From Candidatus Bathyarchaeota archaeon (GTDB taxonomy: Archaea; Thermoproteota; Bathyarchaeia; Bathyarchaeales; Bathycorpusculaceae), in the NCBI GenBank assembly GCA_963767735.1, contig CAVYES010000008.1, forward strand, positions 203,605 through 267,604: 64,000 nt of DNA. The letters run 5' to 3'. How positions within the stretch are numbered: the stretch's first letter is position 1; every line of letters begins with the position of its first letter. Below the pieces are notes generated by a model. That model worked only from the letters and a program-made list of their open reading frames with translations, had not been told where the DNA came from and made no database searches. Positions 42,918-64,000 of this stretch are shown in pieces. The position numbers were made by a program, and so were the translations under genes.

Positions 42918-42996
42918 ACTTCTCTCTAAGAATCTGAAAGCGGTTTTTTCTTGACCGCCATTTTTTCAATTAAGCATTAAGACTTTTTTGCGCGTT

Positions 42997-43313: not shown

Positions 43314-43648
43314 GTAAAGATGTTAGAGACGTTGGAAGCCATGAATGTCAGGAGCGTTTCGCGGCAGAGCGGTATGCCGTCTGATGGATCCGATTGTGTG
43401 TCTAGTACAGAGTTGTCGTGCAGTATAATGCTCTTTTTTGTTTCAAACAGCGGCATGTTATGTCACGTAGACAGACAGAGACAGACCCGGAGGGGGTCTT
43501 ATAGCTTCTCTTTATCTTTATAGCAATATTAAATTTATGATGCCTTAAAATAACAATTTACGAATTTGGTTGGTCGACCGTAAGGCGAGCGTTCTCAAGA
43601 ACAAGGACTCTACTTTGTTGATGGCGCCGGGGAAGGGATTCGAGCCCC
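43314..43648 (-). repeat. ~340-bp element, copy 2, beginning with a tRNA-Ser-like 3' fragment (43622-43648)
   Basis: Reverse complement GGGGCTCGAATCCCTTCCCCGGCGCCA-TCAACAAAGTAG.. matches 4396-4733. Confidence 0.95.
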
Positions 43649-46208: not shown

Positions 46209-46270
46209 GAAGAAACGTGCTAAGAAGCGTCAGCAAAAGCAACGTGAGTTATTGAAGAATTTAGGGTTAT

Positions 46271-46869: not shown

Positions 46870-47993
46870 ATGCCGTCTTTTGATTTGGTTTTCAGCTGGC
46901 ATGCTGGCAATACTTACCGAGAGCAAGCAATTACCAGTACATATGATCTTAAAGACGTGAAGCTTGAGAAGCACCTTAAAGGGAACATTCCGATTGAAGG
47001 CCTAAACTGGCAGATAGGCTGTATTGTTGGGTCATCTGGGAGCGGAAAAACAAGTATAGCTCGGCACTGTTGGCCAGAGGCTTATTATGCTGATCTTAAA
47101 GAAAGATACAAAGAGCCTTGTTTTCTAAATGATTTCCCAGCTGAACTTACTATAAGTGAGCTTGGCGCCGCATTATCAAGCAGCTGGCTTTAGTGAGCCT
47201 CCTGCATGGCTGAAAAGCTATAGTGTGTTGAGTCAGGGGCAAAAGATGCGTGTTGATATTGCTCATGCGCTTTGTTTGCCTCAGCAGCTTGTTGTTTTTG
47301 ATGAGTTTACTTCAGTGATTGATCGGAATGTTGCTCAAATTGGCTCTTATGCGATAAGCAGGGCAATTCGTCATCATCCAGGTAAGCAGTTCATAGCTGT
47401 TACATGCCATTTTGATGTTTTGGATTGGCTTGAACCTGACTGGATCTATAATGTTGATACCGGCAGAATTCTTTGATTATACGAATGTAAAAAAAAACGA
47501 TGTCACCCCCAAATTATTCTCTCAGTTCATAAATGCGATTTATCCATGTGGCAGGTCTTTAGGGAGCATCATTATTTGAATACTGAACGCCTTGGCGCCG
47601 GTGTTCGCTGCTACGTTGCCAAGCTGGGAGAGAAGCCCATTGCGTTTATTGCTGTTGCGCACGTGCATATGCTTGTTAATTATTTTAGGGTTAGCTCGAC
47701 TTGTGGTTTTGCCTGATTACCAGGGCATCGGTGTAGGGAAGCGTTTACTGAATTTTATAGCGGAACTCTACACTAGCCAGCTTGACTTGCCCTTCTACAT
47801 TTTAACGACTAACCCGCAGCTTATCCATGGCAGTCTTTCTAATTGGAAGGTTAAGCGTGTAGGTCACATTAGCGGCGGAAGAACTGACAGCCGAATAAAT
47901 CGGGAAATTCGATCCTCAATCAGCAAGAACCGACTAACCGTTACACTACAGTACATTCCCAAAAGTAAATCTGGAGGCGCCACCGATGGCTAG
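46870..47993 (+). CDS. ABC-type ATPase fused to a GNAT acetyltransferase (indels)
   Basis: Walker A GSSGSGKT, signature LSQGQKMR, Walker B VFDEFTS, TCH; then WQVFREHHYL and RLVVLPDYQGIGVG (GNAT motif A). Confidence 0.82.
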
Positions 47994-48105
47994 ATGCAAG
48001 GGTTGTGGCAACAAGCTTTCCCATTCAAACAAGAGTGGGTACTGCCGAAAATGCTGGGGAAAACTCGTGCATACATTCAAGCAACAAACTAAAAAAGTCC
48101 CTTAA
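47986..48105 (+). CDS. 39-aa Zn-finger peptide
   Basis: MARCKGCGNKLSHSNKSGYCRKCW; GGAGG upstream; overlaps the previous stop. Confidence 0.55.
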   Translation: MARCKGCGNKLSHSNKSGYCRKCWGKLVHTFKQQTKKVP

Positions 48106-48339
48106 CGATGCCTTTGAGCTTGCCTACAATAAGCAACAGTAAGACGTAAACATGCCCAAAGCGCCAATGTTGCACGACCCAAACGTCAATTATTGTATAA
48201 GAGAATTATGCTTTTAAACCAAAAATAAAAGTTTGATGAATTGAAATTGCTGCTTAACTTGGGCATTATCTTCTTAATCAAGGCATCAATTTTGAGTTAG
48301 CTCTTTTCTTCAACTTATTTTGCCTATTTCTTTTGTTTA

Positions 48340-49313
48340 TTATTTACTCAAGTTAGCGGTTTTTCGATGCCTTCTATAAATTAACAGAACAATACTTAAG
48401 GCAACAACTACCGCTATAAGTGCAATTATTAGAATTTGTTCGTTAACGGTTATCATGGTCGGAGCTGGTGTGGGGCTTGGTAAAGGTGTCGGTAAAGGAC
48501 TTTGTGACGGCAAAGGCAAAAATGGAGCAGTTTTTATCAAGTAAATATAACCCCATAATCCTTGGAAAGCTCAACTCAGAGTTTGCAATGCCCAGACCTG
48601 CAAGTGCTCCATCTGACGTTTCAATGAGGGAAAATATTTTGAAAGGAAAATTGATGGTGCCATTATAAAAGTTGCAGGACCTGAATATGTAAGATTCTCA
48701 ATCCATTGTGTATCGTTATTTGAATCGGTTTTCACAAGGGTAGGTGGCACAGTGTACGAACAGGATAATCAGCTGCATTTCCTGCTTCAAAGTAAACGAA
48801 CCCGCCATCACTGGTTTGAATATTTGATGAGAAGACGTAATGCGCTAAGTTTACAAACCGTACTTGTATTTTCATACCATTGAATATCTCCTTGTGAATT
48901 CAGTTTTATGAGTGTCGGAGTAGACTGAAAAGTTGTGCCGTATGTGTTCCATTCTCCCGCTATTTCATATCCGCCATCACTGGTTTGAATAAGGGTTGAC
49001 GCTGTGAAACAAATTGATAGTTTTATTCCATTGCATGTTACCTGAAGAATCAAGCTTGTAGAGAGTTGAAGGAACATAAACTCAATTGGTAGGTGTAGCC
49101 GCAATCTAAAAAGGCGTATCCACCATCACTTGTTTGAATCAAGTTAGAAACTGCAGCAGTATTTCCCGACCCATATGATTTTTGCCATTGGGTGGCAGGA
49201 GGTGAAGTGTTGCTTGAGGTTTGGGCTGAAACTAAAGTAGGTTGAAGAATGATTAAGGACATTATGAAAACAACGACAAGAAATGAAGCGAAACTCTTAC
49301 CTAAACTACGCAT
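48340..49313 (-). CDS. Secreted repeat protein (QTSDGGY repeats) with Pro/Thr linker and C-terminal TM anchor; multiple frameshifts
   Basis: Signal peptide, repeated LIQTSDGGY, PSPTPAPT linker, TM plus RRHRK across three ORFs. Confidence 0.65.
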
Positions 49314-49628
49314 AATTCACTAAAGAAACATGGGCGATAAAAGGCTTTCGTAAAAGTTCCTTGACTAAGGTTTGGTCAAACGTTTCTTGACCAGGCAACT
49401 TGAGCGCTGTATCGACCTTTAAGCTAATCCGCGCGGGAAGGTCGATTTATCATTTAATACAGTAGCTATCTAAAATCATAAATCCCAAAAATGGGTAGTT
49501 ACTCTTAAGAAGACAGCCAAGCAAGCGTTAGAGCTTAAATAGTCTTATCGTGAGAGATGTTTTGTACGCTGACTCGTTAGATTAATGGTTGCAGTTCCCT
49601 TATCCAGCTTCACAGGGCCAAAAGGAAA

Positions 49629-49931
49629 GTGGAGTGTACAGCTGCAACTAACAATGAAGGGTGTGTTTCTTGGATGGGTAAACGCAGTAGTCCTGAGTCT
49701 AAACTTCGCAAGCAGGAGCGCCGGCAGGTTAGAAACATTCTGTTAACGTACAGTTTCAAGGATCGGCTGTCATCGGAGACTGTTTACACGCCTGAACATG
49801 AAAAGATTGTTATGGCTCAATTGAAGGATAGGTTTGGTTTTACTCAGCATCTTGCCGAGCACGGCGAGGTTTTAACTTCTCCTCTAGGTGAATCGCCTAC
49901 CACATACGAGCTGTTTGTTGGTGATGCCTAA
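49629..49931 (+). CDS. Hypothetical provirus protein
   Basis: Coupled to the next ORF by a TAATG overlap; likely start ATG ~49673. Confidence 0.5.
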   Translation: MECTAATNNEGCVSWMGKRSSPESKLRKQERRQVRNILLTYSFKDRLSSETVYTPEHEKIVMAQLKDRFGFTQHLAEHGEVLTSPLGESPTTYELFVGDA

Positions 49932-50278
49932 TGGCTTACGACAAAGACCTGTGCAGTGATGCCTGCAAGAATCCTCATTGCCCCTACATAACGCAGATTA
50001 ACCTTAACACTCAGGCGAATGCTGAAACCCGCCAAGTAATTGCTCAAATTAACAAGGCGTTAGAATCGCTGCTTGGCGAGGATCTAACAGGCTTGAATGG
50101 CGGTGTTATCCGGACGCTTTTTGATAAGATTAGTGAGCTCGCGAAATGTCAACAGCGGGAGCGTACTAGTGCAGCTATCCAAAAGAGTTGGGTTAGCAAC
50201 CTTAAAGCCTTCGGCGCTTTAGTCGTTAGTGTTGCATTAACCGCGGTTTTAGAGTATTGGCTTCTGAAGGGGTTCTAA
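49931..50278 (+). CDS. Hypothetical protein with C-terminal TM helix
   Basis: Helical N-terminus and a hydrophobic FGALVVSVALTAVLEYWLL end. Confidence 0.55.
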   Translation: MAYDKDLCSDACKNPHCPYITQINLNTQANAETRQVIAQINKALESLLGEDLTGLNGGVIRTLFDKISELAKCQQRERTSAAIQKSWVSNLKAFGALVVSVALTAVLEYWLLKGF

Positions 50279-50282
50279 AATC

Positions 50283-50912
50283 TTGGCTTCTATTGAGGGC
50301 GAACGCATAGCCAAGCTGGAAGAGGCACTTGGCGCCGCACCAAAAAAAACCGACCAGCCAGTCGGATCTGGGGATAAGGAGCCTGAGGTTCATATGACCC
50401 TTTCGCTTTTTCACCGCAGAAAGACGATGCTTGTAACCGATTGTATGGGGCGGCTTACTCCTGCGGCTATGGTGCATTTGGCTGATCAGTTTAATACTTC
50501 TGTGGATACTTTGCAGCGAGATTGGGAGCGTAAGTCTGTTTGGGAGCCTTTTATCTGGGCGAACTTCGAGGCTAATGATCAGGGCAAGTCGTTGCTTAAG
50601 CAGTTGCAGCTTGCTCGTGAGGTAGCGCTTGAGTTGATGAATAGTCCTCGGCTTGGCGGGAATGCTCGGGTTGGGGCGATCGCGAGGTTTATTGAGGCTA
50701 TTAAGACGGAGATTGAGCTTGAGCAGAGTTTAGGTTTGCTCTCTAAAGTGCAGCCTGGGCCGCTTGTTCAGAATAATTTTAATCAAATTACGGCTAAGTC
50801 CGAGACCAAAATAATGATTGACTTATCCAAGATGTCAGCTGATGATAGAAATGCCCTCTTACGAGCCGAGGAAGCTCTCACCCGAGCAGAGACAGCAGCT
50901 GGCCCGCAGTAG
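50283..50912 (+). CDS. Putative terminase small subunit
   Basis: HTH-like LADQFNTSVDTLQRDW, helical body, DLSKMSADD tail; overlaps the TerL start. Confidence 0.6.
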   Translation: MASIEGERIAKLEEALGAAPKKTDQPVGSGDKEPEVHMTLSLFHRRKTMLVTDCMGRLTPAAMVHLADQFNTSVDTLQRDWERKSVWEPFIWANFEANDQGKSLLKQLQLAREVALELMNSPRLGGNARVGAIARFIEAIKTEIELEQSLGLLSKVQPGPLVQNNFNQITAKSETKIMIDLSKMSADDRNALLRAEEALTRAETAAGPQ

Positions 50913-52376
50913 CCTCCAATATTATGCACGATATCTTGGTTATGCTGATACGGCTTGGTTTCAAGACGAATGGTATAATCTCCTGCAGCCAGCAAATGAC
51001 CCAGCGCATTTTAGCCCTCTGCCCTGGCATACGCGAGCATTAAAGCAGCTGCATATTGAGGCGCCGCGCAAGCACGCGAAAAGTGAATGCATCTCCATAA
51101 ATTATCCTTCCTGGCTTATCGGGAATTATCCTGAAATCAGAATCGGGATCGTCAGCAAAACCGCTCCGCTAGCCGAACAAACAGTTGCAGCCATAAAGAA
51201 CCGGATTGAAAATGATCCAAGATACTTCAGCATTTTCGGAGATCTAAAGCCTAAGAACCCTCAGAAATGGACCGATAGCGAATTTTACGTTAACCGCAAG
51301 ACAATCAGCAAATTTGCCACTTTATATGCATGCGGTCTCGGCGGCTCATTAACGGGTCGCGGCTTTGACGTAATAATCGCCGACGACATTATTGACGAGG
51401 AAAACGTCAACACTCCAAATCAGCTTGAGAAGGCCAGCCGATGGTTCTTCAAGGTCCTGCTAACAACTCTGTTTAGCAATGGCGCAACTTTGGTGATTGG
51501 GACACGGTGGCATTATGCGGATCTTTATAATGATTTGATTCAGCCTCCGGAGAAAGGCGGCAAAGGCTGGCCCTGCAAAATTTACCGTGCCATCCAGAAC
51601 TATGAAGATGTTGAGAAGGGCGCGGCGCCTCGGGTTCTTTGGCCTGAAGTTTGGCCTTATGAGCGGCTGATGAAGAAAAAAGATGAGATCGGCTCAGTTT
51701 ATTTTTTAAGTCTCAATATCAGAATGACCCGACAAGTCATGGCGGGTGATTTGCTTAAGGCTGAGTGGCTGCATCCCTGGAATGAAGCACCGAATAACAA
51801 CTTTGTGCCTTCCTCTAATCTGCCAAAATACGCGGGTGTTGATCCAGCGCTCGGTGAAGGCGACTTATTTGCAGTCGCCACCGCGAGCTTATGATCGGGT
51901 TCTAAACCGAGCGTATCTCTATGATGTTTACGCTAAGCTGTTGCCGTATCCGGCTGCTATGCAGTTGATGCTGCAGCTTCACGGAATCCACAATTACAGC
52001 TAAGATTTACGTGGAGTCAAACGCTTTCCAAAAAGTAATCATGTACATGCCTCAGCTGCAGGGCTTGCCGATTGTGCCGGTAGTGACGTCGAAAGGCAAA
52101 GAGGAACGGTTGATCCCGCTAAGCAGCCATTTTGAATCTAAACGTATAACCCTAAACCCAGCTTGGGTATATACCCAAAGTGAGTTCTTCCAGGAGTGGG
52201 TGCAGTTCCCAAGGAGTGCGCATGATGACGCTTTGGACTCCGTAGAGATTCTGGTTCGCAATCTGCTCGGGGTCACTTCGATGCCTGAAGGAAAAGGCGT
52301 ATCGGTAATCAAGAAAAAACCAGAAACGTTGAGGATGATTAAAATGGAAAAAACTTTCAAAGGCGTTTTCCAATAG
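50818..52376 (+). CDS. terL: Terminase large subunit (indels)
   Basis: Walker A APRKHAKS, Walker B DVIIADD, GTRWH, nuclease GVDPA / ESNAFQ / HDDALDS. Confidence 0.92.
51697..52350 (+). repeat. Direct repeat A of the terL 3' end (~650 bp)
   Basis: Colinear with 53076-53730, with many synonymous differences. Confidence 0.92.
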
Positions 52377-52389
52377 AAGTTCTCACGAA

Positions 52390-52944
52390 TCAAGGATTTG
52401 TAATTGTTATGTTTAGTGGTACTGTTTGCAAACGGCTGGTGGCGATTAAGTTGTTATCAGTTTCATAAAAACCTACAAGTTGGTACACGCCAGTTGACGC
52501 TTGGGGTGTACTGAGGTAAGAGCCTGTATTCCAATTAAAAGTGTCATTAACGCTTTTTTGTGGGTGAAGCGTTACAGCCCCATTGTGGTTTCCTGTGCCA
52601 TCTTCCGTCCAGACCGAATCGTTTTCACTATTCCGAACATCAAAACCGAGATATGCGTTATATAAGTATGAGTTATTGAAAGCGTTATGAGAAAAAACGG
52701 TCAATACCTTATGACAAGTATTGGTTAACGTCACTGTCACGTAGATTTCTGCTCCTTGCTTATACGTTGTTGTTTTTGAATTCAGAGTTAGGGAAACTTG
52801 TAAGCCATCCATGACGCCACTTTGGGCGGTACTGCCAGCGGAACTAAAATAAATATTCTGGACAAAATAAAGTGTCACCAACAAGATTGCAAGTATCACT
52901 GCGAAGGCTACAATGACTGATTTTTTCTTGTACATTGCATCCAC
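52390..52944 (-). CDS. Membrane-anchored Ig-like (BsuPI-like) extracellular protein, cargo gene
   Basis: N-terminal TM; LQVSLTL..YKQGAEIYVTVTLTN..GVYQL beta-sandwich pattern; many N-x-S/T sites. Confidence 0.65.
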   Translation of the reverse strand: MDAMYKKKSVIVAFAVILAILLVTLYFVQNIYFSSAGSTAQSGVMDGLQVSLTLNSKTTTYKQGAEIYVTVTLTNTCHKVLTVFSHNAFNNSYLYNAYLGFDVRNSENDSVWTEDGTGNHNGAVTLHPQKSVNDTFNWNTGSYLSTPQASTGVYQLVGFYETDNNLIATSRLQTVPLNITITNP

Positions 52945-53066
52945 TGACTGAGGTATAACTTCCGCTCTATTAAAATTAATTATCGATAGTTATTGGTTTA
53001 CTTCAAGACTGTAAGCGAAAGGTTTAACGAAAACAAGAAAAAACAGCGAATCGAGGATTATTAAAA

Positions 53067-53718
53067 ATGGTCGATGTTTATTTTCAGTCTCAATATCAGA
53101 ATGACCCGACGTCAATGGCTGGGGATTTGCTTAAGGCTGAGTGGCTGCACCCATGGAATGAAACGGCAAATATCAATTTTGTGCCTTCCTCTAATCTGCC
53201 CAAATACGCGGGTGTGGATCCAGCGCTCGGTGAAGGCGACCTATTTGCTGTTGCCACTGCGACTTATGATCGGGTTCTAAATCGAGCATATCTTTATGAT
53301 GTTTACGCTAAGCTGCTTGCCGTATCCCGCTGCTATGCAGTTGATTCTGCAACTTCACGGAATCCATAACTACAGCAAAATTTACGTTGAGTCAAACGCT
53401 TTCCAGAAAGTTATCATGTACATGCCTCAGCTGCAGGGGTTGCCGATTGTTCCGGTTGTGACGTCGAAAGGCAAAGAGGAACGGTTGATCCCGCTTAGCA
53501 GCCATTTTGAATCTAAACGTATAACCCTAAACCCAGCTTGGGTATATACCCAAAGTGAGTTTTTCCAGGAGTGGGTGCAGTTCCCAAGGAGTGCGCATGA
53601 TGATGCTTTGGATTCTGTTGAGATTCTGGTTCGAAATCTGCTTGGGGTAACATCGATGCCTGAGGGTAAAGGCGTATCGGTAATCAAGAAAAAACCACAA
53701 GAAAATGAGGATGATTAA
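53067..53718 (+). pseudogene. Second, 5'-truncated copy of the TerL nuclease domain (direct repeat B)
   Basis: FQSQYQNDP..GVDPA..ESNAFQ..HDDALDS without the ATPase domain. Confidence 0.85.
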
Positions 53719-53914
53719 TTTGGAAGAAATTTTGGTTTCTGCAAGTGCTAAAGACGAGATTGTTAAAGTTCTCGGCGGCTTGCAGCATGCGTCGACCATG
53801 GGTAATTTACACATTAAAATTAACGGGGTAGAACAATTCAAGAACGTCATTATTGATGAATTAGAAGTTTCTATCACGCTTGTGGACCCTAAGCCTGAAC
53901 CTGAAAAGAAGTAA
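53705..53914 (+). CDS. Small hypothetical protein between terL and portal
   Basis: ORF in operon position. Confidence 0.5.
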   Translation: MRMINLEEILVSASAKDEIVKVLGGLQHASTMGNLHIKINGVEQFKNVIIDELEVSITLVDPKPEPEKK

Positions 53915-53925
53915 TAGGTGTATAG

Positions 53926-55379
53926 ATGGTGCTGCTGAGAAAAGATCTTTCATTAACGATGCCTAACCCGCTACGCAATGTGCCAAATGCGGTTGCGGTT
54001 TCGCAGCGGGAGACGGAGGTTCCTGTTGCTTGGCGTGGCGACTGGAGCTTAATGCAGTACGTCAACAATTACTGTTTAAAAGCCTCCGGGATCGGCTTTG
54101 TCAGCAGCCCCTACACGTCGCTTTGGGATCGTATTTGGGGAGTGACGCCGGTTGAGGACCTGCCCAAGTTCAAAGCTCTTTACTCTTTTGTCCCGCGTAT
54201 CCAGGCTGCAGTTGACGTCAAAGTTAATTTGGAGATTTCAAACGGCTTCACTCTGGAAGGCGGCACAGCGACTTTTCGTGATTTTTTGGAAGAGTGGGTT
54301 GAGTCGCATGATCTGCTTGATACGATGCGCTCAGAAGAGAAGGATGCGCAGGTTTTCGGGTCATCTTACACCGAGCCATGTATGGATGAAGACTCCAGCC
54401 GAGTAGAATGGCTAAAAACTCTTGATCCCGAATATATGCGGGTTCGCCAAGACTGCTACAAGAACATTTTCGGTTATGCTCAGCTGCAGAGTTACCCGCC
54501 CGTAGTTTTTGACCCAGAGGAAATTTATCGATCAATCAATAACCCTTCTAGCTGGCTGTTTGAGAATGCCTACGGGACCTCTTCTTTGCGTTCAATTCTT
54601 GCATATTCAAGCTTTGATCGATGATTTTCAGGTTGACATGGCTAAAATCATGAAAGTTTACACGAAGCCGATGTTGATCGCTAAATGCGGCGGTGATGGT
54701 TCTCCTGGGAAGGCTCAGCCTTGGAGTGACGCCCAATTAGACGTTATGTCAAATACGCTGCAAGTGCGCGATCAAGGAACAGATCTAACCGTTAGGGGCG
54801 ACGTGGAAGTGCAGCCAATGTCTTCTTTAACTAAGGACCTGAAGGCTGAATGGTGGATTGAGTACCTAGAGCGTCAACGTGACAGCCAGCTGGGCGTGCC
54901 AAAGATTTTTCTCGGAGAACCGGAAGGCGCAAACAGGTCCACTAGCGACATTGTTATGCAGGAATTCGTAACTCGGCTGCGTATGCGTCAGAAACACCGC
55001 AGCAGCATTTATGAAATGCAGCTTTTCCCACTAATCCTGCGCGGCGATTTCCCTGAAAGCTTGATCATACCCGACAAGATCCCGAAGATTAAGTGGAAGC
55101 CGATTTGGGAACCGCCGACAGACGTCAAGATGAGCCGTGTTATCGACCTCTACAATGCTATGTTGATGGGTGATATAGAAGCGCGTGCGCGAGTTGGGTT
55201 TGCCTGAAAAGATCGATGGTGTCTTGAAGCAGCAGTCGGCTCCGGCGCCGATAGGGATGCCTGAAGGTCGTGAGTTTGAGACTCCTGGGCAACCGCGGAA
55301 GGCTTTAGGTAAGGGTGTGCCTGCGCAGGTTGTTAAGGATGGGGCGGGGGCTTCGTATCTTGTGCGAGCTCTGCCTTGA
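53926..55379 (+). CDS. Portal protein (indels)
   Basis: Position after terL; DAQVFGSSYTE, LKTLDPEYMRV, AYGTSSL, LGVPKIFLG..ANRSTS, EARARVG motifs. Confidence 0.85.
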
Positions 55380-55645
55380 AGCCGTTAACGCGGTTCGTGC
55401 TGTAAGGGCTTTGGAAGCTGCAGTTGTTAACCCAAACGTGAAGTTCTCTACTTGGCGCTTCTACAACTCCAAGAACCCTAACACCTGCGAAAAATGCGAA
55501 GATTACGACGGCGACGAGTACGAGCTTGGAAGACCCTGATGATCTACGGGATATTTTTCCCTATGGTGAATTTGTAGCTGATGATACCTTCGCCTGCAAC
55601 GTTCACCCGAACTGCGGTTGCTTCTGCGTGAAGAAATCAGATTAA
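55360..55645 (+). CDS. Minimal head-morphogenesis (gpF/gp7-like) protein, one indel
   Basis: W....NTCEKCEDYDG, then NVHPNCGC in the shifted frame, matching the gpF C-terminal CxxC..HPNCxC motif. Confidence 0.65.
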
Positions 55646-55681
55646 TAACAACTCAAACATTAAACGGAGAATATCTCGCTT

Positions 55682-56785
55682 ATGGAATTAAATTATGATG
55701 TTGAAGTACAAGCCAGCCTAGATGATCTAAGGAAAACAGGCATTATCGAAGGCCAAGCAATTGACTCTTCAGTTAACAAAAACCGTTGGCAGGTTCCGGA
55801 GCAAGATCTAGATTATTTTTGTTCAACTCTCCAAAATGCTCAGCTCAGGATTAATCACGGGGACCGCGTGGAAGACGTCAAAGGCGTAGTCTTCAAAACT
55901 AAGCATATAGGGAACACAGTAAATTTTGAGGCTGATGTTTCTGGCGATCCCGTATTACTGACCCAGATTGAAAAGAAATATCTCCATATGGTCAGCCCAA
56001 AAGTAATCTCAGATGATATTGTCTGCAGCTTATGCCAGGGCAAAACCCGAGATGCCAACATGCAGATGATTCATCTCTGCGCGGGCGCCTGGGAAATCGT
56101 GCATCAACCCCGCTGCCTGGAACTCAGTATAGTTGCTGAGGGGGCTTACGAGAATAACAATTTTCATTTGAAAGGTTTTGCGGCTGCCATGGATGAATCG
56201 CAGCGGCTAGGGCTTATTGCGTCTGTCTGTGAATGCGCGGATAAGTCGCGTTGCCCTTGTGGCCTAAAGGAATTGAAAGCAAAGTTACAGCCTGACTTAC
56301 ACGGGCTTAACAATCAAATTAGAGGAGAAAAAAATAAAATGAGTTCAGGTGAAAATCAGCCACCGATAGCTCCGCAAGTACCAGCCACTAGCCAAAAACC
56401 AGCAGCTGGCACCGAATTGACCTATCAGCAACTAGAAGACCAATTAACAAAGAATACGTCGCAGATCATGGATGCCTGCAAAGCCGCCATCGCGGAATCT
56501 GAAAAGAAAATGGAATCCAAAGTGGAAGCTACTGTAAAAGCAGCAATCGAAGCCGCAGTCCCTAAGCCTCGACCAAACGGGAAAGGCCAAGCGGGAAACG
56601 GCTTGGGTGCAGCAGGCGCAGGTCAGGGACTCCCAGGAATCGATGATGCTCAACGCCTTAACAACATGTTTGCGCCGAAGGCCAATTTGAGGAAAGCAGG
56701 GCTTGAATTAGCTGCTGCCGCTAAGCGTATGGGCAGTTTAACAGCCGATGTAACACATGAAGAGAAAGATGAGGAGGGAGCATAA
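55682..56785 (+). CDS. Prohead protease fused to a scaffold-like region
   Basis: IEGQAID..VNKNRW, LRINH, VSP, ELSIVAEGAY; low-complexity coiled-coil C-terminus. Confidence 0.75.
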   Translation: MELNYDVEVQASLDDLRKTGIIEGQAIDSSVNKNRWQVPEQDLDYFCSTLQNAQLRINHGDRVEDVKGVVFKTKHIGNTVNFEADVSGDPVLLTQIEKKYLHMVSPKVISDDIVCSLCQGKTRDANMQMIHLCAGAWEIVHQPRCLELSIVAEGAYENNNFHLKGFAAAMDESQRLGLIASVCECADKSRCPCGLKELKAKLQPDLHGLNNQIRGEKNKMSSGENQPPIAPQVPATSQKPAAGTELTYQQLEDQLTKNTSQIMDACKAAIAESEKKMESKVEATVKAAIEAAVPKPRPNGKGQAGNGLGAAGAGQGLPGIDDAQRLNNMFAPKANLRKAGLELAAAAKRMGSLTADVTHEEKDEEGA

Positions 56786-57257
56786 TGTCGCAGGGACAAG
56801 CATTTGATGGTGTAGGGCCTAAAGCTTATTCCAGATCTTGAGCAGACATTTCCGAGCAGATACAGGATACACATCGCCAGCAGTAGGTGACCCAGTTTAC
56901 ATTTCCAGTGACAACGGCTACACTCCGGCAGTCAGCTTATGCGTAGGCGAAAACCCAGCGTTCGTTGGCTTCGTGCAATCTGTAATACCCACTGACACCT
57001 TTGGCAATAAGCTGCTTAACGTCTACGTCTTCGGGCATAGAGTACGATGCAAGAACACTTCAGGCGGAACATTAACTGCAGGCCAAGTTATCACTTCAGG
57101 CAACGGCGGAATCACAGCTCTATCGCCTATAACTGCTCTTGACACAAGCTTCCCATTGACCTTAACAATCGCTGCAATCAACGCCCAGATGGGCCGACGC
57201 GGAATCGTAGCTGTTGGTGGCGCAAATAACGCGCTTGTTCAAATAATCTTCGGGTAA
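56785..57257 (+). CDS. Putative capsid decoration/cement protein (5' indel)
   Basis: Beta-rich, Gly/Thr-rich protein immediately upstream of the MCP. Confidence 0.5.
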
Positions 57258-57332
57258 CCGAGGATTCCCTTTCAGTTTTTTTGAAAGCAGAAAAAAGAAA
57301 ATTAATTAAAATTTTAAAGGAGAAAAAGAAAA

Positions 57333-58229
57333 ATGAGTTTTGTTGAAGATGCTTTAAGCTTTGTTGATAGTGCTGGGATTCAGTATCCAGAGCTCAACCA
57401 AGTTATCATAGAGATGACTATGCCTAACCTGATTTTGAAGCGGCTTCTCACTGACGATGTTCTCAAGCACGGACGAACTAAGACTTACACGATTGAAAAC
57501 GGATCGCACAGTGTCGGCATAAGTGAAGTAGCTCCAGGCACCGCTGCACCAGTCGATTACACCCCGATGAAGTTTGCAACTCTTAGCCCGTACAAACGTA
57601 TGGAAGCTGTCGAAATTCCTAAAGAAGTCGTTGAAGACGTTGATCTGCCAGTGGTTAATCAACAGTTGAAACGTATGGCCAGACGCTTAGCATACCAGAT
57701 TGAGCTTGACTGCTGGTTAGTAATGAACGCTGCCGTTCCGGTTGCAAATAGCTTTGCTGGCACCGGTAAAACAGTTACTATAACAGGTACCGAATACACT
57801 AAGGCGAACACTGCAGGTATGGAAGACTTTAACGCTGCTGAAGCTTTGATCAACGCCGGCGACTTCATCATGGACACCATTGTCTGCAACCCCGTTCAGA
57901 AACGAGACATCAAGAACCTGCCCAACTACAGCCTATACCGCGACGAAATCAGCCCAATTACTCAGAAGCCAATCCAGATGCTAGGTGAATGGGAGCTTTG
58001 CTGGAGCAACGTCGTGCCCGCAGGGACCATTCTTTGCATATCAACTGGCAAAAACCTTTCAGCTGCCTATGCGCCCCTTGGGATGTTTCTTGTTAAGCGC
58101 CCTTTGACCACAGATGTTGAGCTTCTTAAGAGTAAAGAAGTTGTAAAGCCGATTCTGTCAACCAGGTATGCTCCGATCATTCTTAACGGCCAATGCATTG
58201 CAGCAATCACAGGACTAGCAACAAGCTAA
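57333..58229 (+). CDS. Major capsid protein (HK97 fold)
   Basis: About 300 aa; EVAPG..P, EIPKEVVED, MARRLAYQIE, DTIVCNP, SNVVPAGT, STRYAP; strong RBS. Confidence 0.85.
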   Translation: MSFVEDALSFVDSAGIQYPELNQVIIEMTMPNLILKRLLTDDVLKHGRTKTYTIENGSHSVGISEVAPGTAAPVDYTPMKFATLSPYKRMEAVEIPKEVVEDVDLPVVNQQLKRMARRLAYQIELDCWLVMNAAVPVANSFAGTGKTVTITGTEYTKANTAGMEDFNAAEALINAGDFIMDTIVCNPVQKRDIKNLPNYSLYRDEISPITQKPIQMLGEWELCWSNVVPAGTILCISTGKNLSAAYAPLGMFLVKRPLTTDVELLKSKEVVKPILSTRYAPIILNGQCIAAITGLATS

Positions 58230-58327
58230 GCATAAAGTTAAGTTTGATTTTCTTTTGCCCATATCTTTTAAGTTATGGACCGTAAAGCCGGCTTCAAAGT
58301 AACCACTCACTCATCTAACTTCTTTAG

Positions 58328-59163
58328 TTATGGAATTGGATATCCTGCTAATCCGACCAAATCTATTGTATAATTGCCGACATTGTGGTTTGTTGTAGCC
58401 ATGTCAATCTCAACCACATACGTATCTCCGCTGCCCAACCCGATTTGAGGTACACCTAAGGGTGCTGATCCTGGGCTAGTTACGTCCTCTGATTGGATTG
58501 GCGTATTCTTAACGTATAATTTTGCTGTCAAGCCAAAATATGCTGTGCCCGAGCTGTTGCCTGGGAAGTTATCCATTGGAGGCGGTTGCTGTGCAGTGTA
58601 ATCATTTCTTACAGTGGCTTCAATGATGAAGCATTCTTGACCATCATATTTTCCATAATAAGAATACGATGAAATTAGAAAAATCTTTGAGCTACCTAAA
58701 TAGCCAGCATCACTCAATTTTGCAGCTTGGTCCATTCTGAAGCTGTTGTACTTGATTAAACTCAACTAAAGCAATTGCTGTGCTTGCAATTAAGAGAAAG
58801 ACTAACAGTACAGAAAGAACTTGGAAAGACTTTTTTGAACTAAAAAGACGAGAGTGAGATTTAACGGAATCTTTTCTTGCCAGAGAAGCATTCTCAACCG
58901 TTTGGACGGTTAATAGTGCATCCTTTCCTTGATTTGACAGACAATATTTCCCATGTTCGTCGGTCTTGATTAAGTCTCCTAATTTGTTAAGATGATGTTG
59001 GAGCTGCCCGCTGCTTTCAATGGAGGTTTTTTTCTTTAAATCGGCAAATCCAAGAGGCTTCTTCACTTAAAGCCTTTAGAATAACGATCCTTGTGGGATG
59101 GCCAAGGGCGTCAAATATTTCTGCTCTTTGCCTGTCTCTTTCGATGTCTTGTCCTTCTTCCAT
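58328..59163 (-). CDS. ArsR-type wHTH + TM + extracellular domain, cargo gene (indels)
   Basis: RQRAEIFDALGHPTRIVILKAL..GFADLKKK..SSGQLQHHLNKL, TM, then a beta-rich domain. Confidence 0.75.
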
Positions 59164-59277
59164 TATCGTGCGCCTCAAGGCACTCACTACACTTAGCTAT
59201 TTAATTCCTCGTTTGAAGACTCCCGAATAAAACCAAGTCCTGTTTTCAGGACATTAATATTATGACAGAGGACCTAT

Positions 59278-59739
59278 ATGTCGTCATACCCAAGTTTCAC
59301 TTCGCTTTCTGAAGTGGTCACACATCTAAATGCTACCGGACCTGATAGCAACAGCAATTATCTAGTTTACGGGCTCACTGTTTCAAGCAATAGCGTTCAG
59401 GACTACGTTGACCACGCGAACACTTACATAGGCAGCCTTGTGCCCAGCGTAACGTCGACGGATCCGCGTTACCCATTTGCGCAGTTAGCCGCCTTAGATC
59501 TTGCGTGCATGAGCGTTTTAGTTGCTGCGAGCGGAGGCATGCTTTTGGGCGCGGCAGATTACAAGCTTGGCGACTTATTCGTAACTAAAGGCGCCATTGG
59601 AAAATTCTCATTTCAAAGCGCAGTGCAAAGCTTCCAAGACAGTTTTACCCGAAATATAGTGAATCTTTCAACTGTAGCCATAGGCGCTCAAGCACGGCTG
59701 GGACATGAAGTTCCTCATTGTAGAGGACTGGGGCGTTAG
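59278..59739 (+). CDS. Putative head-tail adaptor
   Basis: FTSLSEV..L..VQDYVDHANTYI..AALDLAC..YKLGDL pattern of gp6/gp15-like adaptors; position after the MCP. Confidence 0.6.
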   Translation: MSSYPSFTSLSEVVTHLNATGPDSNSNYLVYGLTVSSNSVQDYVDHANTYIGSLVPSVTSTDPRYPFAQLAALDLACMSVLVAASGGMLLGAADYKLGDLFVTKGAIGKFSFQSAVQSFQDSFTRNIVNLSTVAIGAQARLGHEVPHCRGLGR

Positions 59740-59741
59740 GA

Positions 59742-59846
59742 ATGGCAAAGCGAAAACTTAGGCTTCTGCTTATTCCAGTTGCTATAGTGCTTTTCGTGAT
59801 TGGTTGGCTTCTTTATTATTTCGGCAGAAAACGGAGGAAAACTTAG
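59742..59846 (+). CDS. 34-aa single-TM peptide
   Basis: MAKRKLRLLLIPVAIVLFVIGWLLYYFGRKRRKT. Confidence 0.5.
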   Translation: MAKRKLRLLLIPVAIVLFVIGWLLYYFGRKRRKT

Positions 59847-59879
59847 ACGTCAACTAATCAAGCCTTAGCGGTTTCGGAG

Positions 59880-60284
59880 TTGCTGCAGGAGAATTGGTCG
59901 CTATCAAATCCGGTGGCTGCCGCAAATATTTTGTGGCCTACTACTCGCATGGATGCGATTGGGATTACTCAGGGAAAAGGATCCTTGCAAATAGCCGTCT
60001 ACAACGCGAGCCCCAGCAAGCAGGTGGATGCGCTTAGTCGCGAATGTTACCTGGTTACTGAAAAACTTGTCGTCGACATAATTGTTGTTAACGCTAGCCA
60101 AAGCACAGCTGATTTAGCCTCTGCAGAATCAACTTTGGAAGCATTGCAGGCTGAAGTTACCCGCATCATCCACTTGCAAGACCCAAACTATGCAGTAACC
60201 GGAGAGCCGATTCACAGTAACGCAACTGAAGTAACCCGCGTCATGATCAACGTTGACGCCGTTTACTTCAGCATTTCAAGTTAA
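59880..60284 (+). CDS. Putative tail terminator/completion protein
   Basis: LLQENW start, alpha/beta pattern and position in the neck module. Confidence 0.45.
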   Translation: MLQENWSLSNPVAAANILWPTTRMDAIGITQGKGSLQIAVYNASPSKQVDALSRECYLVTEKLVVDIIVVNASQSTADLASAESTLEALQAEVTRIIHLQDPNYAVTGEPIHSNATEVTRVMINVDAVYFSISS

Positions 60285-60556
60285 TAGGCAGGTGAAGTAA
60301 ATGGCAGAACAAAAAAGGGCGGCAAACCAGAAATTTAAAACCAAATTTAGCTCTTGGATTGTGACTTACAAAAACGGTTCCCAGGTTCTGGTAGAGCACA
60401 GAGTAACAAAAATAGCTTAGCGCTGCGGAAATTCGCTTAACGCTGTTAGTCCAGAAAACTGGACTTACGTTAATTGTCCTATTCAATGTGTCTACAAACG
60501 AGGCATTAAATAGTTTAATGATATGACATGGATAAGACAGCTTGAGGTGAGAAAAA

Positions 60557-61381
60557 ATGGAAGACGAAGGGCAAGTGGAGAATGATAGGCAACGCGCAGA
60601 AGTCTTTGACGCACTAGGTCACCCTACACGCATTGTAATCTTGAAAGCCCTAAGTGAAGGTGCTCTTGGATTTGCCGAACTTAAAAAGAAAACAGCCATT
60701 GAGAGCAGTGGGCATCTTCAACACCACTTAAACAAGCTCAACGGACTGATAAAGACTGATGAATATGGCAAGTATTGCCTAACAGAGCAAGGAAAAGACG
60801 CCTTACTGACAGTTCAAACGGTCGAGAATTCATCGCCAAGAACTGCAACAAAAGAGAAAGGGCATAGACACTTAAAGGTAGGCCTAAAACCTGTTGCTGT
60901 TCTTCTGGTGGCTCTCCTGATTGCAAGTTCAGCAGTCGCAGTGTATGAGTACAATCAAGCAGCTGATTTTCAGCGGGAATTTACCCGTTCTAATTCAGTT
61001 AATTTACAAGCTATGGAATACTATAGCGAATTTGGGATAATACCAAATACAAATGTTAACTCTTCATACACTCCACCAATTTCAATGTATCGTGCCTTAC
61101 AACTTGGGCTTGAATCAGATGGCTGGAACAAAACATCACTTTATGGATTAACCGTTGGGGTTTTCCTAGATTTGCAAACTACAACTAATCAAACTTTTAG
61201 CATTGGTCCATTAACAAGTATACCTTCAGACTACTCTGATGTATACGGCAACGGCATAACTTATAGGTACGTTTGGCAAATAACCGTTACTAACTCAAGC
61301 GTTATTGAGCTTCCACCTCCTGGTTACAGCTTAATTGATGCTTCAACAGGACAAATACTCCCAAATCCACCACTTTATTAG
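60557..61381 (+). CDS. ArsR-type wHTH + TM + extracellular domain, cargo gene
   Basis: RQRAEVFDALGHPTRIVILKAL..SSGHLQHHLNKL, TM, C-terminus ending in a PepSY-like YVWQI..LIDASTGQIL. Confidence 0.8.
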   Translation: MEDEGQVENDRQRAEVFDALGHPTRIVILKALSEGALGFAELKKKTAIESSGHLQHHLNKLNGLIKTDEYGKYCLTEQGKDALLTVQTVENSSPRTATKEKGHRHLKVGLKPVAVLLVALLIASSAVAVYEYNQAADFQREFTRSNSVNLQAMEYYSEFGIIPNTNVNSSYTPPISMYRALQLGLESDGWNKTSLYGLTVGVFLDLQTTTNQTFSIGPLTSIPSDYSDVYGNGITYRYVWQITVTNSSVIELPPPGYSLIDASTGQILPNPPLY

Positions 61382-61496
61382 TGCCCTAATCCCCGTTTTT
61401 CAGAATCAAAACAAAAGAACACCCATTTGTAATGTTCATAAACCGTCAAAGGAAATCCAGGTCTTTTAATTAACAGGTAGGCTTAAGGTGGTTTAG

Positions 61497-61859
61497 TTGA
61501 GCGTTCAAATTTCAATTAACAAATCAAACTTTGATGTGCTGAGCAGCTGCTTTGATTGTCTTTGTAAGCAGTACCCTGAGGCTGTAAATCAAGCTCTGAT
61601 GAACGTTGCTCAGGATATTTTGGTGACTGCGAACACGTTAGTTCCAGTCAGAACGGGCTATTTGAAAAGTACCATAGCAATTGAGCAGCCCAGCAAATTT
61701 CAAATTAAAGTCAAAGCCACGGCTCCCTATGCTTATTACGTGGAGTTTGGAACAAGGAAAATGTCGCCGAGGCTTTTCCTTACTAACGCGGTTAATCAGC
61801 ATTTGCCTGAATTGGCGCCGGAGATTGAGCAGCAAATCCAAGATTTGTTACGAGGTTGA
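61497..61859 (+). CDS. HK97 gp10-family tail completion protein
   Basis: VPVRTGYLKSTI, APYAYYVEFGTRKM.PR.FL. Confidence 0.9.
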   Translation: MSVQISINKSNFDVLSSCFDCLCKQYPEAVNQALMNVAQDILVTANTLVPVRTGYLKSTIAIEQPSKFQIKVKATAPYAYYVEFGTRKMSPRLFLTNAVNQHLPELAPEIEQQIQDLLRG

Positions 61860-61975
61860 AAAAGTATAATGGTGAAATCTAAGAAGGGTTCAATTTTGTT
61901 TCCTTGCTTCTTTGCAGTTTTATTATGAAATAAGCATTTACTAATAAAAAGAGGATAAAGACATAGAGTGGGAAG

Positions 61976-62161
61976 TTAGGTACTTTGAAGAGCAAGTGCA
62001 AGTGGTGGATTCTCAAAAGAGCGCCCGCCACTGATTGAGAAAATATTAAATCCGTTTAGTGTCGTACCGTTGAGTTCAGAAAGCACTAATTGGCTGGAAA
62101 GATAAAGAAGCAAACCCAATATTATATTGGCAATAATGACAGTTGTTAATCTTGTTGTCAC
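61976..62161 (-). CDS. Small membrane protein, cargo gene (possibly frameshifted)
   Basis: N-terminal TM; a second hydrophobic stretch downstream in another frame. Confidence 0.4.
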   Translation of the reverse strand: MTTRLTTVIIANIILGLLLYLSSQLVLSELNGTTLNGFNIFSISGGRSFENPPLALALQST

Positions 62162-62273
62162 AATGACACCTCAAGCGCATTTGCTTTTGCCAATCTTGTA
62201 TTTGTTTTGACCTTGCTTAAAAGATAATCGTTAAAGACGTTAAAGTAACCAAATTTAATCGAGGTGAAAAAGT

Positions 62274-62697
62274 ATGAGTTTAGCAACTACGCCAGTTCTA
62301 AGTCGAAATGCAGTTGTCCAGGTAGGCGGAGCAGCAATCGGTTTTCTCACTGACTTCACTATGGATGTCAAAGCGGAAATGATTAAGGAGTACGTTTGCG
62401 CGTCAGGCGGGTCTCCATCGCCAGCTTTCACGGCAAGCGGCAACCAATCCTACACGTTCAAAGCTTCAGCCCTTTATGTCCCAGCAAACTATGCAGCACT
62501 ATTAACAGATGTTCTTAACGGCTCACTTGGTTACGGTTATTTGGGGTCCACAAGGCACAACCACAGGGTCGGGAACACCAAAAATCACATTAAGCAACGT
62601 TGTCTTAACAGCTTACAGCGTCAAAAACGGGCAGAAAGGCACAATCGCGAACGATATTAGCGGTGAAGCGCAAAGTGTGGCCACAAGCACTTTCTAG
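62274..62697 (+). CDS. Putative tail tube protein (one indel)
   Basis: IGFLTDFTMD..GNQSYTFKASALY, then ITLSNVVLTAYSV..ISGEA; tail-tube beta-strand pattern. Confidence 0.65.
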
Positions 62698-63892
62698 TGT
62701 TTTCTTTCTTTTCGTCTATTTTGAATCGAGATAGTTCGGTCATTTTTTGCAGCCCATGCTGCCACGCACAAGGACACAGCCACCACAGCTATCATCACTA
62801 AAATGAGACTGCCAACACTGAACTCCGGTGCAGTTGGAACAGGTGAGGGAGATGCAGTTGGAGTTGTAGACGCAGTTGGGCTTGAAGATGGAGACGAGAG
62901 GGAAGCATCATTTATCACTGAAACAGAGCCAGAGTTAGAGTTAGCTACGAAGATTTCGCTTTTGCCAGAATCATAAGATACGCCTTGGGGGGTGTTTCCC
63001 ACGGGTATCGTTGCAACCACTGCATTGCTGCTATCCGATATAACTGAGACCGTGTAGGATGCAATATCATACACGTTGGATTTACTATTGGTTACGAAGA
63101 TTTCGCCCTTACCAGAATCATAAGCCACACTATCTGGCGTAAGCCCCACGGGAATAGTTGCATTTACGACATTACTACTATCGGATATGACTGAAACTGT
63201 GTTGTCGCCTGAATTAGCTACGAATATTTCGCCCTTTGAAGAATCATAAGCCACACCTTCAGGCAAGGTTCCTACGGGTATGGTTGCAACAACGGCATTG
63301 CTACTGTCCGATATAACTGAGACTGAGTGGGATGCATCCGACGCTCCATAATTAGTTACGAATATTTCGCCCTTGCCAGAATCGTAAGCTACGCCTTCAG
63401 GTTGGGTTCCAACGCCTATCGTTGCAACCACGGAATTACTGCTGTCTGAAATGACCGACACGTTGAAGGCGGCACTATTGGCTACGAAGATTTCTCCCTT
63501 TCCAGAATCATAAGCCACGCCAAACGGAGCCGGGCCAACGGGCACCGTTGCAACCACTGCATTATTACTATCTGATATAACATAAACAGATTTGAAGCCG
63601 CAGACCACGAATACCTCGTTCTTACCTGAATCATAAGCGACGGTCTCGGGCCACCCATAGAAACTGCGGCAACCACTGCATTAGTGCTATCTGATATAAC
63701 AGAAACCGAACTGGAGTCAGCATTTGCAACGAATATCTCTCCCAACCCAGAATCATAAGCCACGCCCCTCGGGATGTCTCCCACAGGTATTGTGGCAATT
63801 ACTCCAGCCCCCTGAACCGCGTTGACTGCTAACAAAGCAAGAATCACTGTGAGAAGAATTGATGCAGAGAAGATTTTCTTTAGATTCTCCAT
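62694..63892 (-). CDS. YVTN/YncE beta-propeller surface protein with PEF-type C-terminal sorting signal, cargo gene (indel)
   Basis: Repeats of VATIPVG..P.GVAYDSGKGEIFVAN..VSVISD, Ser/Pro/Thr linker, APEF plus TM plus basic tail. Confidence 0.88.
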
Positions 63893-64000
63893 AAAGATTC
63901 TTTGATTTCGGCTATCTTATACAGCTTTCGCTATTGTTAGCGTGAGATCGTGTTTCTTTAAATCTTGTCTGCATTGTCTGACAACGGCGTAGGTAACCCC

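Follow-up and report, generated by a model that had tools for sequence, protein, structure and literature searches.

The last 64 kb of contig C8 from a Candidatus Bathyarchaeota archaeon (GenBank assembly GCA_963767735.1; 3.04 Mb in 10 contigs, GC 0.43) ends in a module of virion genes with other genes lying between them. This whole stretch of 64,000 nucleotides (C8:203605–267604 of a 267,604-bp contig) is referred to here as the window, and its positions are numbered from its first base. From ~43–45.5 kb to the contig end, it probably holds the left and middle part of a moron-laden tailed provirus (HK97-type, Caudoviricetes-like). An earlier note on this DNA had left the choice between such a provirus and a domesticated locus resembling a gene transfer agent (GTA). 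Comparison with related loci favors the former: the inserts appear as extra DNA between genes that are adjacent in relatives, they mostly encode predicted envelope proteins, and their base composition is deviant in all but one cassette. GC is 0.407 in the cassettes against a core mean of 0.474, with five of six cassettes at 0.35–0.41 and the cassette encoding an NHL protein no different from the core.

Virion genes and the DNA between them

The virion genes were assessed by PHROGs and Pfam profile scans of 33 open reading frames (ORFs) at 47.5–64 kb. These scans place the large terminase (TerL), portal, major capsid protein (MCP), gp10-like and tail tube genes all on the plus strand and in canonical order, as had been read from the sequence (Table 1). 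Some matches are weak: the MCP reaches 20.8 bits with Phage_capsid_4 (cut-off 27), and TerL scores 20.3 bits with Terminase_6N, under the cut-off of 22. In a sister provirus on contig C4 of the same genome, the MCP homologue scores 33.1 bits (9e-9), above the cut-off, and the portal homologue (intact, 488 aa, 80–85% identical) matches phrog_9232 with an E value of 2.9e-14. The tube is 97–99% identical to intact 140-aa genes in the copies on C4 and C5. In what follows, C denotes contigs of this genome and L denotes the individual loci compared.

Other members of the module are recognized by position and conservation. The putative small terminase (TerS) has no PHROGs or Pfam match and is 46–58% conserved in L013, L017, L024 and L028, and the two connector or neck-region genes are kept in the C4, C5 and C6 copies and in viral loci. 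The 3' end of the second connector gene is overlapped, in a different reading frame, by a conserved basic ORF of ~55 aa at C5:116053–116220, C6:539131–539301, L013:12908–13075 and L018:1893–2060; the counterpart of this ORF in the window, at about 60256–60420, has a stop codon. Upstream, the ParB-like gene precedes the terminase in L037, L039, L024 and others, and homologues of the ATPase-GNAT gene precede TerS in L017, L024 and L039. Because relatives carry both genes upstream of the terminase, both are assigned to the virus. Compared with L039, the ATPase-GNAT gene shows five +1 and one −1 indels, and TerL has indels as well.

The right end of the window coincides exactly with the contig end, so that the chaperone, tape measure protein (TMP) and distal tail genes, together with any integrase, would fall beyond it. 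The sister copies on C4 and C5 and the viral loci do have chaperone, TMP and distal tail genes. A tblastn search for the tail continuation, in which the C4 tail proteins served as queries, found tape measure and tail genes in the C4 and C5 copies alone and at no contig end.

The dN/dS analysis that the earlier note had proposed for the structural genes gave pairwise omega values of 0.05–0.07 for the MCP and 0.08–0.14 for three other core genes, with dS high and partly saturated. These values show that the structural genes are under strong purifying selection across lineages.

At least six non-viral genes had been counted between the virion genes, five of them antisense. The strand assignments are confirmed, and five of the genes are well supported, four of these being antisense. 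The sixth, a 61-aa antisense ORF at 61976–62161, is not supported as a gene, since neither the ORF nor its DNA has a homologue in the genome or in the 37 loci L013–L049; the 384-bp insert that surrounds it is nevertheless real. The term "non-viral" is itself debatable, as the closest viral contigs hold the same cargo families in the same slots. Three of the five supported inserts (cassettes 1, 3 and 6) are single genes split by frameshifts.

That the insertions fall at or near gene boundaries is borne out by comparison with relatives, which places all of them between core genes. For cassettes 1, 3 and 4 and for the insert at the gp10/tube junction, the intergenic boundaries against empty alleles are precise, and relatives hold spacers of 0–64 bp instead. 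Cassette 1 is a clean 1419-bp insertion relative to L039, which has the closest left arm and is without this cassette. In place of the 384-bp gp10/tube insert, L026 has ~10 bp and contigs from two metagenome runs have 72 nt. Target-site duplications were looked for at the junctions of four cassettes; no clear direct repeats were found, with loose microhomology at one.

The five supported products are predicted to be envelope proteins: two DUF7347 proteins, two beta-propellers and one signal-anchored beta-sandwich protein. The gene of cassette 1, which is broken into at least four frame pieces, has a homologue at C6:106179–107477 (34% identity) that is a PQQ_2 beta-propeller. The cassette 2 protein is 46% identical to the product of C6:124691–125197 and 34% identical to that of L013:4770–5483, both with a BsuPI match. 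The DUF7347 gene of cassette 3 is broken by +1 indels at 58727 and 59056, and its protein is 82–88% identical to that of an intact 277-aa gene in the same slot of L013; cassette 4 has same-slot counterparts in C5, L013 and L018. The NHL gene of cassette 6 is split by one frameshift, and its family is also found antisense in the tube/chaperone slot of C7, L026 and L049 (46–50% amino acid identity). Candidate promoter boxes, TATA-like and AT-rich, stand 25–45 nt upstream of the cassette genes, and the two DUF7347 genes have in common a conserved CAAACGAGG-ATTAAATAG element that lies ~45 nt before the start.

Cassette 2 has an unusual setting, in that it lies between two copies of the C-terminal third of TerL (51704–52376 and 53081–53718, ~91% identical). 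The last 670 bp of the gene recur 1375 bp downstream as a direct repeat of 89–97% identity, with 92% column identity and single-base indels. Of the two copies, the first continues the rest of TerL without a break, and the second is followed by a normal "empty" spacer and the portal. Such a duplication was seen at none of 22 related TerL/portal junctions. Read depth is ~0 over 52010–53211, which covers cassette 2 and part of the repeat, in four related soil-metagenome runs, whose contigs neither confirm nor refute the duplication. A parallel is found in L016, where two cargo genes stand between a full connector gene and, further along, a decayed second copy of it. Both duplicates can be read as scars of unequal recombination between related genomes that would have brought the cassette in.

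Table 1 Genes and inserts of the proviral part of the window
Feature	Position	Strand	Evidence and remarks
ParB-like nuclease domain gene	46265–46858	+	phrog_498 (E 4e-13), phrog_620 (E 7e-10)
ABC-ATPase + GNAT acetyltransferase gene	46870–47993	+	phrog_11143; four frames through single-base insertions
Cassette 1	48082–49500	−	Gene 48340–49313; signal peptide and C-terminal hydrophobic segment; GC 0.384
Two small viral ORFs within 49581–50278	49629–49931, 49931–50278	+	Kept in L039 (85–89% aa), L035 and L037; no PHROGs or Pfam family match
Putative small terminase (TerS)	50283–50912	+	Position only; overlaps TerL downstream
Large terminase (TerL)	50818–52376	+	Full length, three frames; phrog_38 (E 2.9e-60 N-terminal, 8e-16 C-terminal)
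Cassette 2	52377–53075	−	Gene 52390–52944, 184 aa, signal-anchored, BsuPI-like by homologues; GC 0.388
Partial second TerL copy (nuclease region)	53081–53718	+	phrog_38 (E 6e-11, 2e-17)
Portal	53926–55379	+	phrog_9232 (E 2.6e-7); three frames
Small head-morphogenesis-like gene	55315–55642	+	Homologue C4:161113–161424, weak phrog_4728 match
Putative prohead protease/scaffold	55682–56785	+	Position only; in all head modules, 37–93% identity; no family match
Small head-module gene (deco position)	56838–57257	+	89% identical to C4 copy; always 2–58 bp behind preceding gene
Major capsid protein (MCP), probably HK97-like	57333–58229	+	phrog_1650 (7e-6); Phage_capsid_4 (5e-4)
Cassette 3	58306–59324	−	DUF7347 winged-helix/transmembrane/ectodomain gene 58328–59163; GC 0.407
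Two connector/neck-region genes	59278–59739, 59880–60284	+	Position only; no PHROGs or Pfam match
Cassette 4	60421–61523	+	Intact DUF7347 gene 60557–61381; PF24038 46.5 bits (cut-off 27.6), E 4.4e-12
HK97 gp10-like tail-completion protein	61497–61859	+	PF04883 31.8 bits (cut-off 21.4); phrog_5 (8e-16)
Insert at gp10/tube junction	61858–62241		384 bp; GC 0.352
Tail tube	62274–62697	+	Weak Phage_tube_2 match; split by +1 insertion at 62525
Cassette 6	62694–63892	−	NHL/YVTN beta-propeller (NHL 7e-16), signal peptide, Pro/Thr-rich linker, C-terminal anchor; GC 0.464

Cargo slots in related loci

The occupancy of each junction was measured across ~40 loci: three proviruses plus remnants in this genome, 13 IMG/VR loci collected by their capsid protein (80–94% identity), and 24 genome loci collected by capsid alignment or profile, 22 of which lie in metagenome-assembled genomes titled Candidatus Bathyarchaeota or Bathyarchaeia, in keeping with the host clade supposed in the earlier note. 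Eighteen reference core proteins were mapped on all loci, with L014 and L015 left out as near-identical to L013, and a junction was called occupied when the gap was at least 600 bp. The window's own TerL junction was scored as empty, as its cargo sits between the two TerL copies.

All related loci show the same core gene order, and the junctions are bimodal, being either empty (10–350 bp) or occupied (0.6–5 kb, and once 9.7 kb). Cargo is accepted at nine of 13 junctions. It is most frequent between tube and chaperone (10/16), connector 2 and gp10 (8/19), MCP and connector 1 (12/34), and morphogenesis gene and protease (8/24), followed by chaperone/TMP (3/11), portal/morphogenesis (4/24), gp10/tube (3/19), TerL/portal (2/22) and TMP/dit (1/13). 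The remaining four junctions never accept it: protease/deco (0/26), deco/MCP (0/28), connector 1/connector 2 (0/20) and dit/fibre (0/12). The same scaffold therefore carries different cargo at the same slots, which the earlier note had named as a thing to look for.

Among these loci, the closest viral contigs are L013, L014 and L015, which come from three metagenomes and share the window's cargo families in four slots. Their cargo includes an antisense BsuPI-like gene after TerL, an antisense DUF7347 gene after the MCP (82–88% amino acid identity) and a sense DUF7347 gene before gp10 (73%). In other relatives, the window's slots are empty or differently filled, and L017, L022 and L024 are compact at the junctions covered.

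Contigs from four soil-metagenome runs provide a further view of the junctions; they represent related populations and not the source of the genome, as the best share of sampled words was 0.20, and the runs recovered were of DNA alone. The contigs skip 60420–61524, including the sense DUF7347 cassette, in three runs and 61813–62261, including the gp10/tube insert, in two runs, and 908 extra bases precede the protease gene in two runs. In two runs, one joint connects the 3' end of the tube with the 3' end of a relative of the 48340–49313 gene, which indicates that this cargo family is also found in the tube/chaperone slot.

The core modules themselves are mosaic in L042–L047. The capsid of these loci is just 40–43% identical to the query alignment, and their connector 2, gp10, tube and chaperone are 79–99% identical to the C4 reference; this difference between head and neck-tail identities implies recent module exchange.

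Cargo composition was examined by counting ORFs of at least 80 aa in occupied slots and scoring hydrophobic segments with a Kyte-Doolittle window. The cargo is biased toward membrane or secreted proteins: 53 of the 77 slot ORFs have such a segment, compared with 25 of the 119 ORFs taken from host contig C3 and with 5 of 18 core proteins (Fisher p 4e-11). Once nine ORFs of a single 9.7-kb block on C6, a possible rearrangement, are set aside, 52 of 68 slot ORFs have one. Antisense ORFs make up about half of the cargo (39/77). A Pfam scan of 49 slot ORFs from L013–L049 identified seven DUF7347 proteins, five propellers (NHL, Kelch or lactonase-type), two beta-helix proteins, two LamG/CBM proteins, and one each of BsuPI, flavodoxin, DinB and zinc ribbon; two matches are weak (SprB, BNR_4), and 27 ORFs have none. 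In the partial provirus copy on C6, the slot between the gp10-like gene and the tube is filled by a metabolic gene, for a zinc-dependent alcohol dehydrogenase (C6:541920–542930; L008:11920–12927), whereas surface proteins occupy this slot elsewhere.

The DUF7347 proteins were examined through an AlphaFold model of the cassette 4 product (mean pLDDT 80.4, and >90 over residues 31–100). The model comprises an ArsR/SmtB-like winged helix, one long transmembrane helix and an alpha/beta ectodomain. The N-terminal 100 residues match ArsR/SmtB structures (Foldseek TMt 0.69–0.77; 22–26% identity) and superpose on the repressors CzrA, SqrR, BigR and HlyU. Unlike the soluble members of that family, the DUF7347 cargo adds the transmembrane helix and an extracytoplasmic alpha/beta domain of ~125 residues. 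Pfam scores for HTH_20 and HTH_5 fall under their cut-offs. For the ectodomain fold, Foldseek returned matches to the winged-helix part alone, and ESM Atlas feature scores of 0.76–0.82, below the 0.9 level, gave a weak PepSY lead. The two halves of the protein differ in constraint, with omega at 0.06–0.10 in the N-terminal (cytoplasmic) half and 0.28–0.41 in the ectodomain, and the ectodomains have diverged to 29–45% identity. The family counts 527 proteins at E ≤1e-5, and those that are named are called Bathyarchaeia winged-helix protein or HxlR/ArsR regulator; "DUF7347" is not mentioned in the literature searched. Of the 12 DUF7347 matches in this genome, five sit inside three proviral structural modules. 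More speculatively, these viral proteins could span the membrane to sense a signal from outside and pass it on to transcription, perhaps even to the choice between lysis and lysogeny.

Borders, consensus quality and competing explanations

Integration into a host chromosome is indicated by the left side of the module. Archaeal housekeeping genes occupy 5–43 kb of the window and end at 42.9 kb; they include genes for DNA polymerase D subunits, Cdc6, GGGP synthase (PcrB), aldehyde:ferredoxin oxidoreductase, aconitase, isocitrate dehydrogenase and ATP-citrate lyase (ACL). In three congeners, homology to the window stops at 42911–43192, which indicates that a host chromosome flank is present on the left. 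The left border of the provirus can thus be bracketed, by comparison, within 43.2–45.5 kb. It is no more than bracketed because the ORFs at 43–45.5 kb, including one of 360 aa at 44244–45323, have no Pfam or PHROG match and no relative in the related loci. An empty site (attB) was sought in the ACL-carrying congeners G036, G022 and G034, and none was definable, as the downstream neighbors differ in each.

A ~330-bp repeat lies inside the left-border interval, just past the last host gene (43316–43648). Other copies are found at 4396–4730 (reversed), C5:227360–227529 and C6:365811–366000, with 89–93% identity among the four places. A small mobile element is one possibility, and neither a tRNA nor an Rfam match was found in the window. 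At the start of other contigs, the same integrase-like 481-aa ORF opens both C5 (C5:3748–4248) and C6 (C6:3746–4246) at equal offset, which points to a repeated mobile element as the place where contigs break.

Several points weigh against a tailed provirus in the form proposed here. The earlier note had seen no integrase, and none of the 16 PF00589 matches in the genome lies on contig C8; with no integrase, att site or tRNA in the window, integration is deduced from the left host flank alone. The host CRISPR array at the start of contig C10 (C10:75–5040; 28-nt repeat; at least 63 spacers), located by a k-mer scan, was compared through 63 spacers, none of which matches the genome's proviruses or L013–L049. 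The element may be truncated in reality, as its tail module is unseen. The conserved stretch SQYQNDP is in frame solely in the partial second copy of TerL, and TerL would be dead if its indels were real. Consensus quality shifts sharply near 36.3 kb, with positions 1–36 kb almost free of frameshifts, and a mis-join or a poorly supported contig tail beyond that point is possible. The AT-rich, promoter-like motifs could arise by chance. Finally, the earlier note had held that cargo fixed in free viral genomes would speak against its view, and this is in part what was found: L013–L015, which may be free viruses or proviruses, share their cargo with the window. On short time scales, judging from these contigs, the cargo behaves as a stable part of the virus and not as an exchangeable cassette; over the whole set of loci it is both, stable on one scale and exchangeable on another.

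The most serious competing explanation is that the element is a defective, decaying remnant, in which the virus is dead and only the cargo is kept by the host. Such remnants do exist in this genome, which has 13 loci with virion genes or fragments. The C4 sister provirus is nearly complete, from TerL to tail fibre; C5 has an integrase followed by connector to tail genes; C6 holds a partial copy; and among further remnants is one on C7 with an integrase. At C2:154.8–158.4 kb, C7:307.7–309.5 kb, C6:123 kb and C6:551–553 kb, fragments of portal, protease, tube or chaperone genes surround an intact NHL gene, and for five of the 18 NHL paralogue loci a virion gene or fragment is found no more than 2 kb away, compared with 3.8% of random windows. 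The intact NHL genes amid virion fragments suggest that cargo can outlive the virus. At one of these places (C6:122973–123191; L012:6973–7191), a 72-aa ORF adjoining NHL and BsuPI-like genes fuses the N-terminus of the chaperone (aa 1–44) to the C-terminus of the tube (aa 111–140), reversing their genomic order; it may be a recombination junction.

In the window, decay would also account for the partial TerL duplication, the many frameshifts and the lack of tail genes before the contig end. However, the frameshifts are as dense in adjacent essential genes of the reductive tricarboxylic acid (rTCA) cycle. Against their closest intact relatives, the broken viral genes show 16 +1 and four −1 single-base events in 5974 aligned bp (2.7 per kb), and the aconitase-isocitrate dehydrogenase-ACL block shows 18 +1 and two −1 events in 6618 bp (2.7 per kb) against the orthologous block of a congener. 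In nine congeners, ACL open frames are 615–622 aa, whereas the ACL of the window is fragmented. The extra base is absent from related-population contigs at 47537, 53315, 55190, 59167 and 62526/62530, and portal and tube are intact in the sister copies. Frameshifts run through 36.5–64 kb, housekeeping genes included. Since the rTCA genes are equally broken, the indels absent in related populations and the sister genes intact, the frameshifts are most likely consensus errors of the assembly and not decay. Moreover, the core from TerS to tube is all present, full length and ordered, whereas the remnants hold fragments, and the missing tail corresponds to the contig end. A decaying remnant is therefore considered unlikely, although it is the strongest of the alternatives.

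Some features of the consensus are recorded here in their own right. S-adenosylhomocysteine hydrolase, aconitase, isocitrate dehydrogenase and ACL (28884–30153; 36519–42914) are each in two to seven frames via single-base insertions, and long intact ORFs are found at 1–28 kb. The DNA polymerase D large subunit DP2 (11540–14984, minus strand) is divided between two ORFs (820 and 330 aa) with an overlap of a few bases, which may be a true split or the result of another frameshift. The tetranucleotide AGCT occurs within 6 nt of 6/16 viral +1 sites (46870–62530) and 1/18 host sites, with a background of 5.3%; this pattern is post hoc and unexplained, and was not used.

It is also conceivable that the interruptions are assembly artefacts and that the contig is a chimera of related proviruses and host loci. 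The genome has at least three related copies with shared stretches of 90–99% identity between connector 2 and tube, the contig ends in a repeat-rich region, its consensus quality is poor, and the TerL duplication is found in no relative and is uncovered by related contigs. However, independent assemblies (L013–L015, L018, L049 and L026) have four of the window's cassettes in matching slots and with matching orientation, and empty and occupied alleles differ at precise intergenic boundaries. Independent support is wanting solely for the TerL duplication and the 384-bp insert, and a chimeric origin of the interruptions is thus very improbable.

GTAs of the RcGTA type consist of a head-tail gene cluster in a cellular genome, with no integrase to be seen close by. 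A domesticated GTA-like particle locus that serves the host as a landing pad for surface genes, the other option of the earlier note, would fit a window with host-like genes interleaved among head-tail genes that are under purifying selection and with no integrase or replication genes, but it is the least credible explanation given that, unlike RcGTA, this system is patchy and multi-copy, has sisters with integrase (the C5 copy and the C7 remnant), tape measure and complete tail modules, has 13 close relatives in a viral contig collection, and carries ParB-like, ATPase-GNAT and TerS-like genes beside the terminase as its relatives do. Capsid profile matches are found in 8/61 genomes including this one, that is, in 7/36 other congeners and 0/24 genomes from the order's other families, at 0–4 copies per genome, and several diverged copies occupy different loci here. 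This distribution is the pattern of a temperate virus and not of a vertically inherited GTA.

Cassette exchange and its possible meaning

Together, these observations argue for a moron-laden provirus whose late operon would carry self-contained, mostly antisense, lower-GC cassettes at junctions that are permissive in relatives. Recombination between related viruses within one cell may be how the cassettes are acquired and exchanged. Partners would be at hand in this genome, with its three large copies plus remnants, and the conserved core genes on either side of a cassette could provide the homology needed. An unequal exchange now and then would leave part of a gene in duplicate, as with the C-terminal copy of TerL. 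The cassettes are presumed to be expressed from their own promoters during lysogeny, and their products may remodel the cell envelope or its signaling; the likeliest effects would be the exclusion of superinfecting relatives or a benefit to the lysogen. More tentatively, the tailed viruses of soil and peat Bathyarchaeia might, as a group, form a cassette-exchange system for the cell envelope, in which genes for anchored surface proteins and membrane-tethered ArsR-type regulators enter a few permissive junctions of a highly conserved late operon, and in which this cargo is swapped among co-resident proviruses, outlives the virus and both seeds and diversifies the surface-protein families of the host. 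This broader proposal is a speculative one, and we hold it to be rather doubtful at present.

The moron concept is the closest known. Morons of lambdoid phages include lambda lom and bor, and the original moron, HK97 gene 15, lies at the chaperone/TMP junction and encodes a membrane protein that blocks superinfection (PMC3594210). By the definition given there, a moron also has a promoter and a terminator of its own and is expressed from the repressed prophage. The lambdoid morons resemble the present cassettes in being extra DNA between late genes adjacent in relatives, in their differing GC and in their often membrane-bound products, and the junction used by HK97 gene 15 is among those occupied in the present loci. 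Unlike the lambdoid morons, the cassettes are found in an archaeal host, occupy as many as five or six junctions within a single structural module, are antisense in about half of the cargo, and are dominated by large anchored beta-propeller and beta-helix proteins and by membrane-tethered winged-helix proteins. The present case stands out by how densely its junctions are occupied, by its anchored surface proteins in antisense orientation and by the membrane-tethered regulators that recur among the cargo.

Tailed viruses and proviruses of Bathyarchaeia have been described from metagenomes, with auxiliary and defence genes in such proviruses (PMC10848311, PMC11705971). In the portions of these two reports that were available, the proviruses likewise have integrated HK97-type head-tail modules, and there is no mention of morons or surface cargo inside the structural operon for Bathyarchaeia viruses or proviruses; the word "moron" does not occur in PMC10848311. 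Our literature search on archaeal proviruses, morons and superinfection exclusion found no report of this pattern among the matches listed.

For assemblies of this kind, one practical consequence is that broken virion genes need not signal decay, as the neighboring central-metabolism genes are equally broken here. The slot map, for its part, records which junctions accept cargo and which never do, and can be tested in long-read metagenomes and metatranscriptomes. Very little is known of the cell envelope and of virus-host biology in Bathyarchaeia, which are abundant and have hardly been cultured. If the cargo is expressed in lysogens, these proviruses would be a main path for the entry and spread of surface proteins and envelope-linked regulators in Bathyarchaeia genomes, and they would be a natural place to seek superinfection-exclusion functions in archaea.

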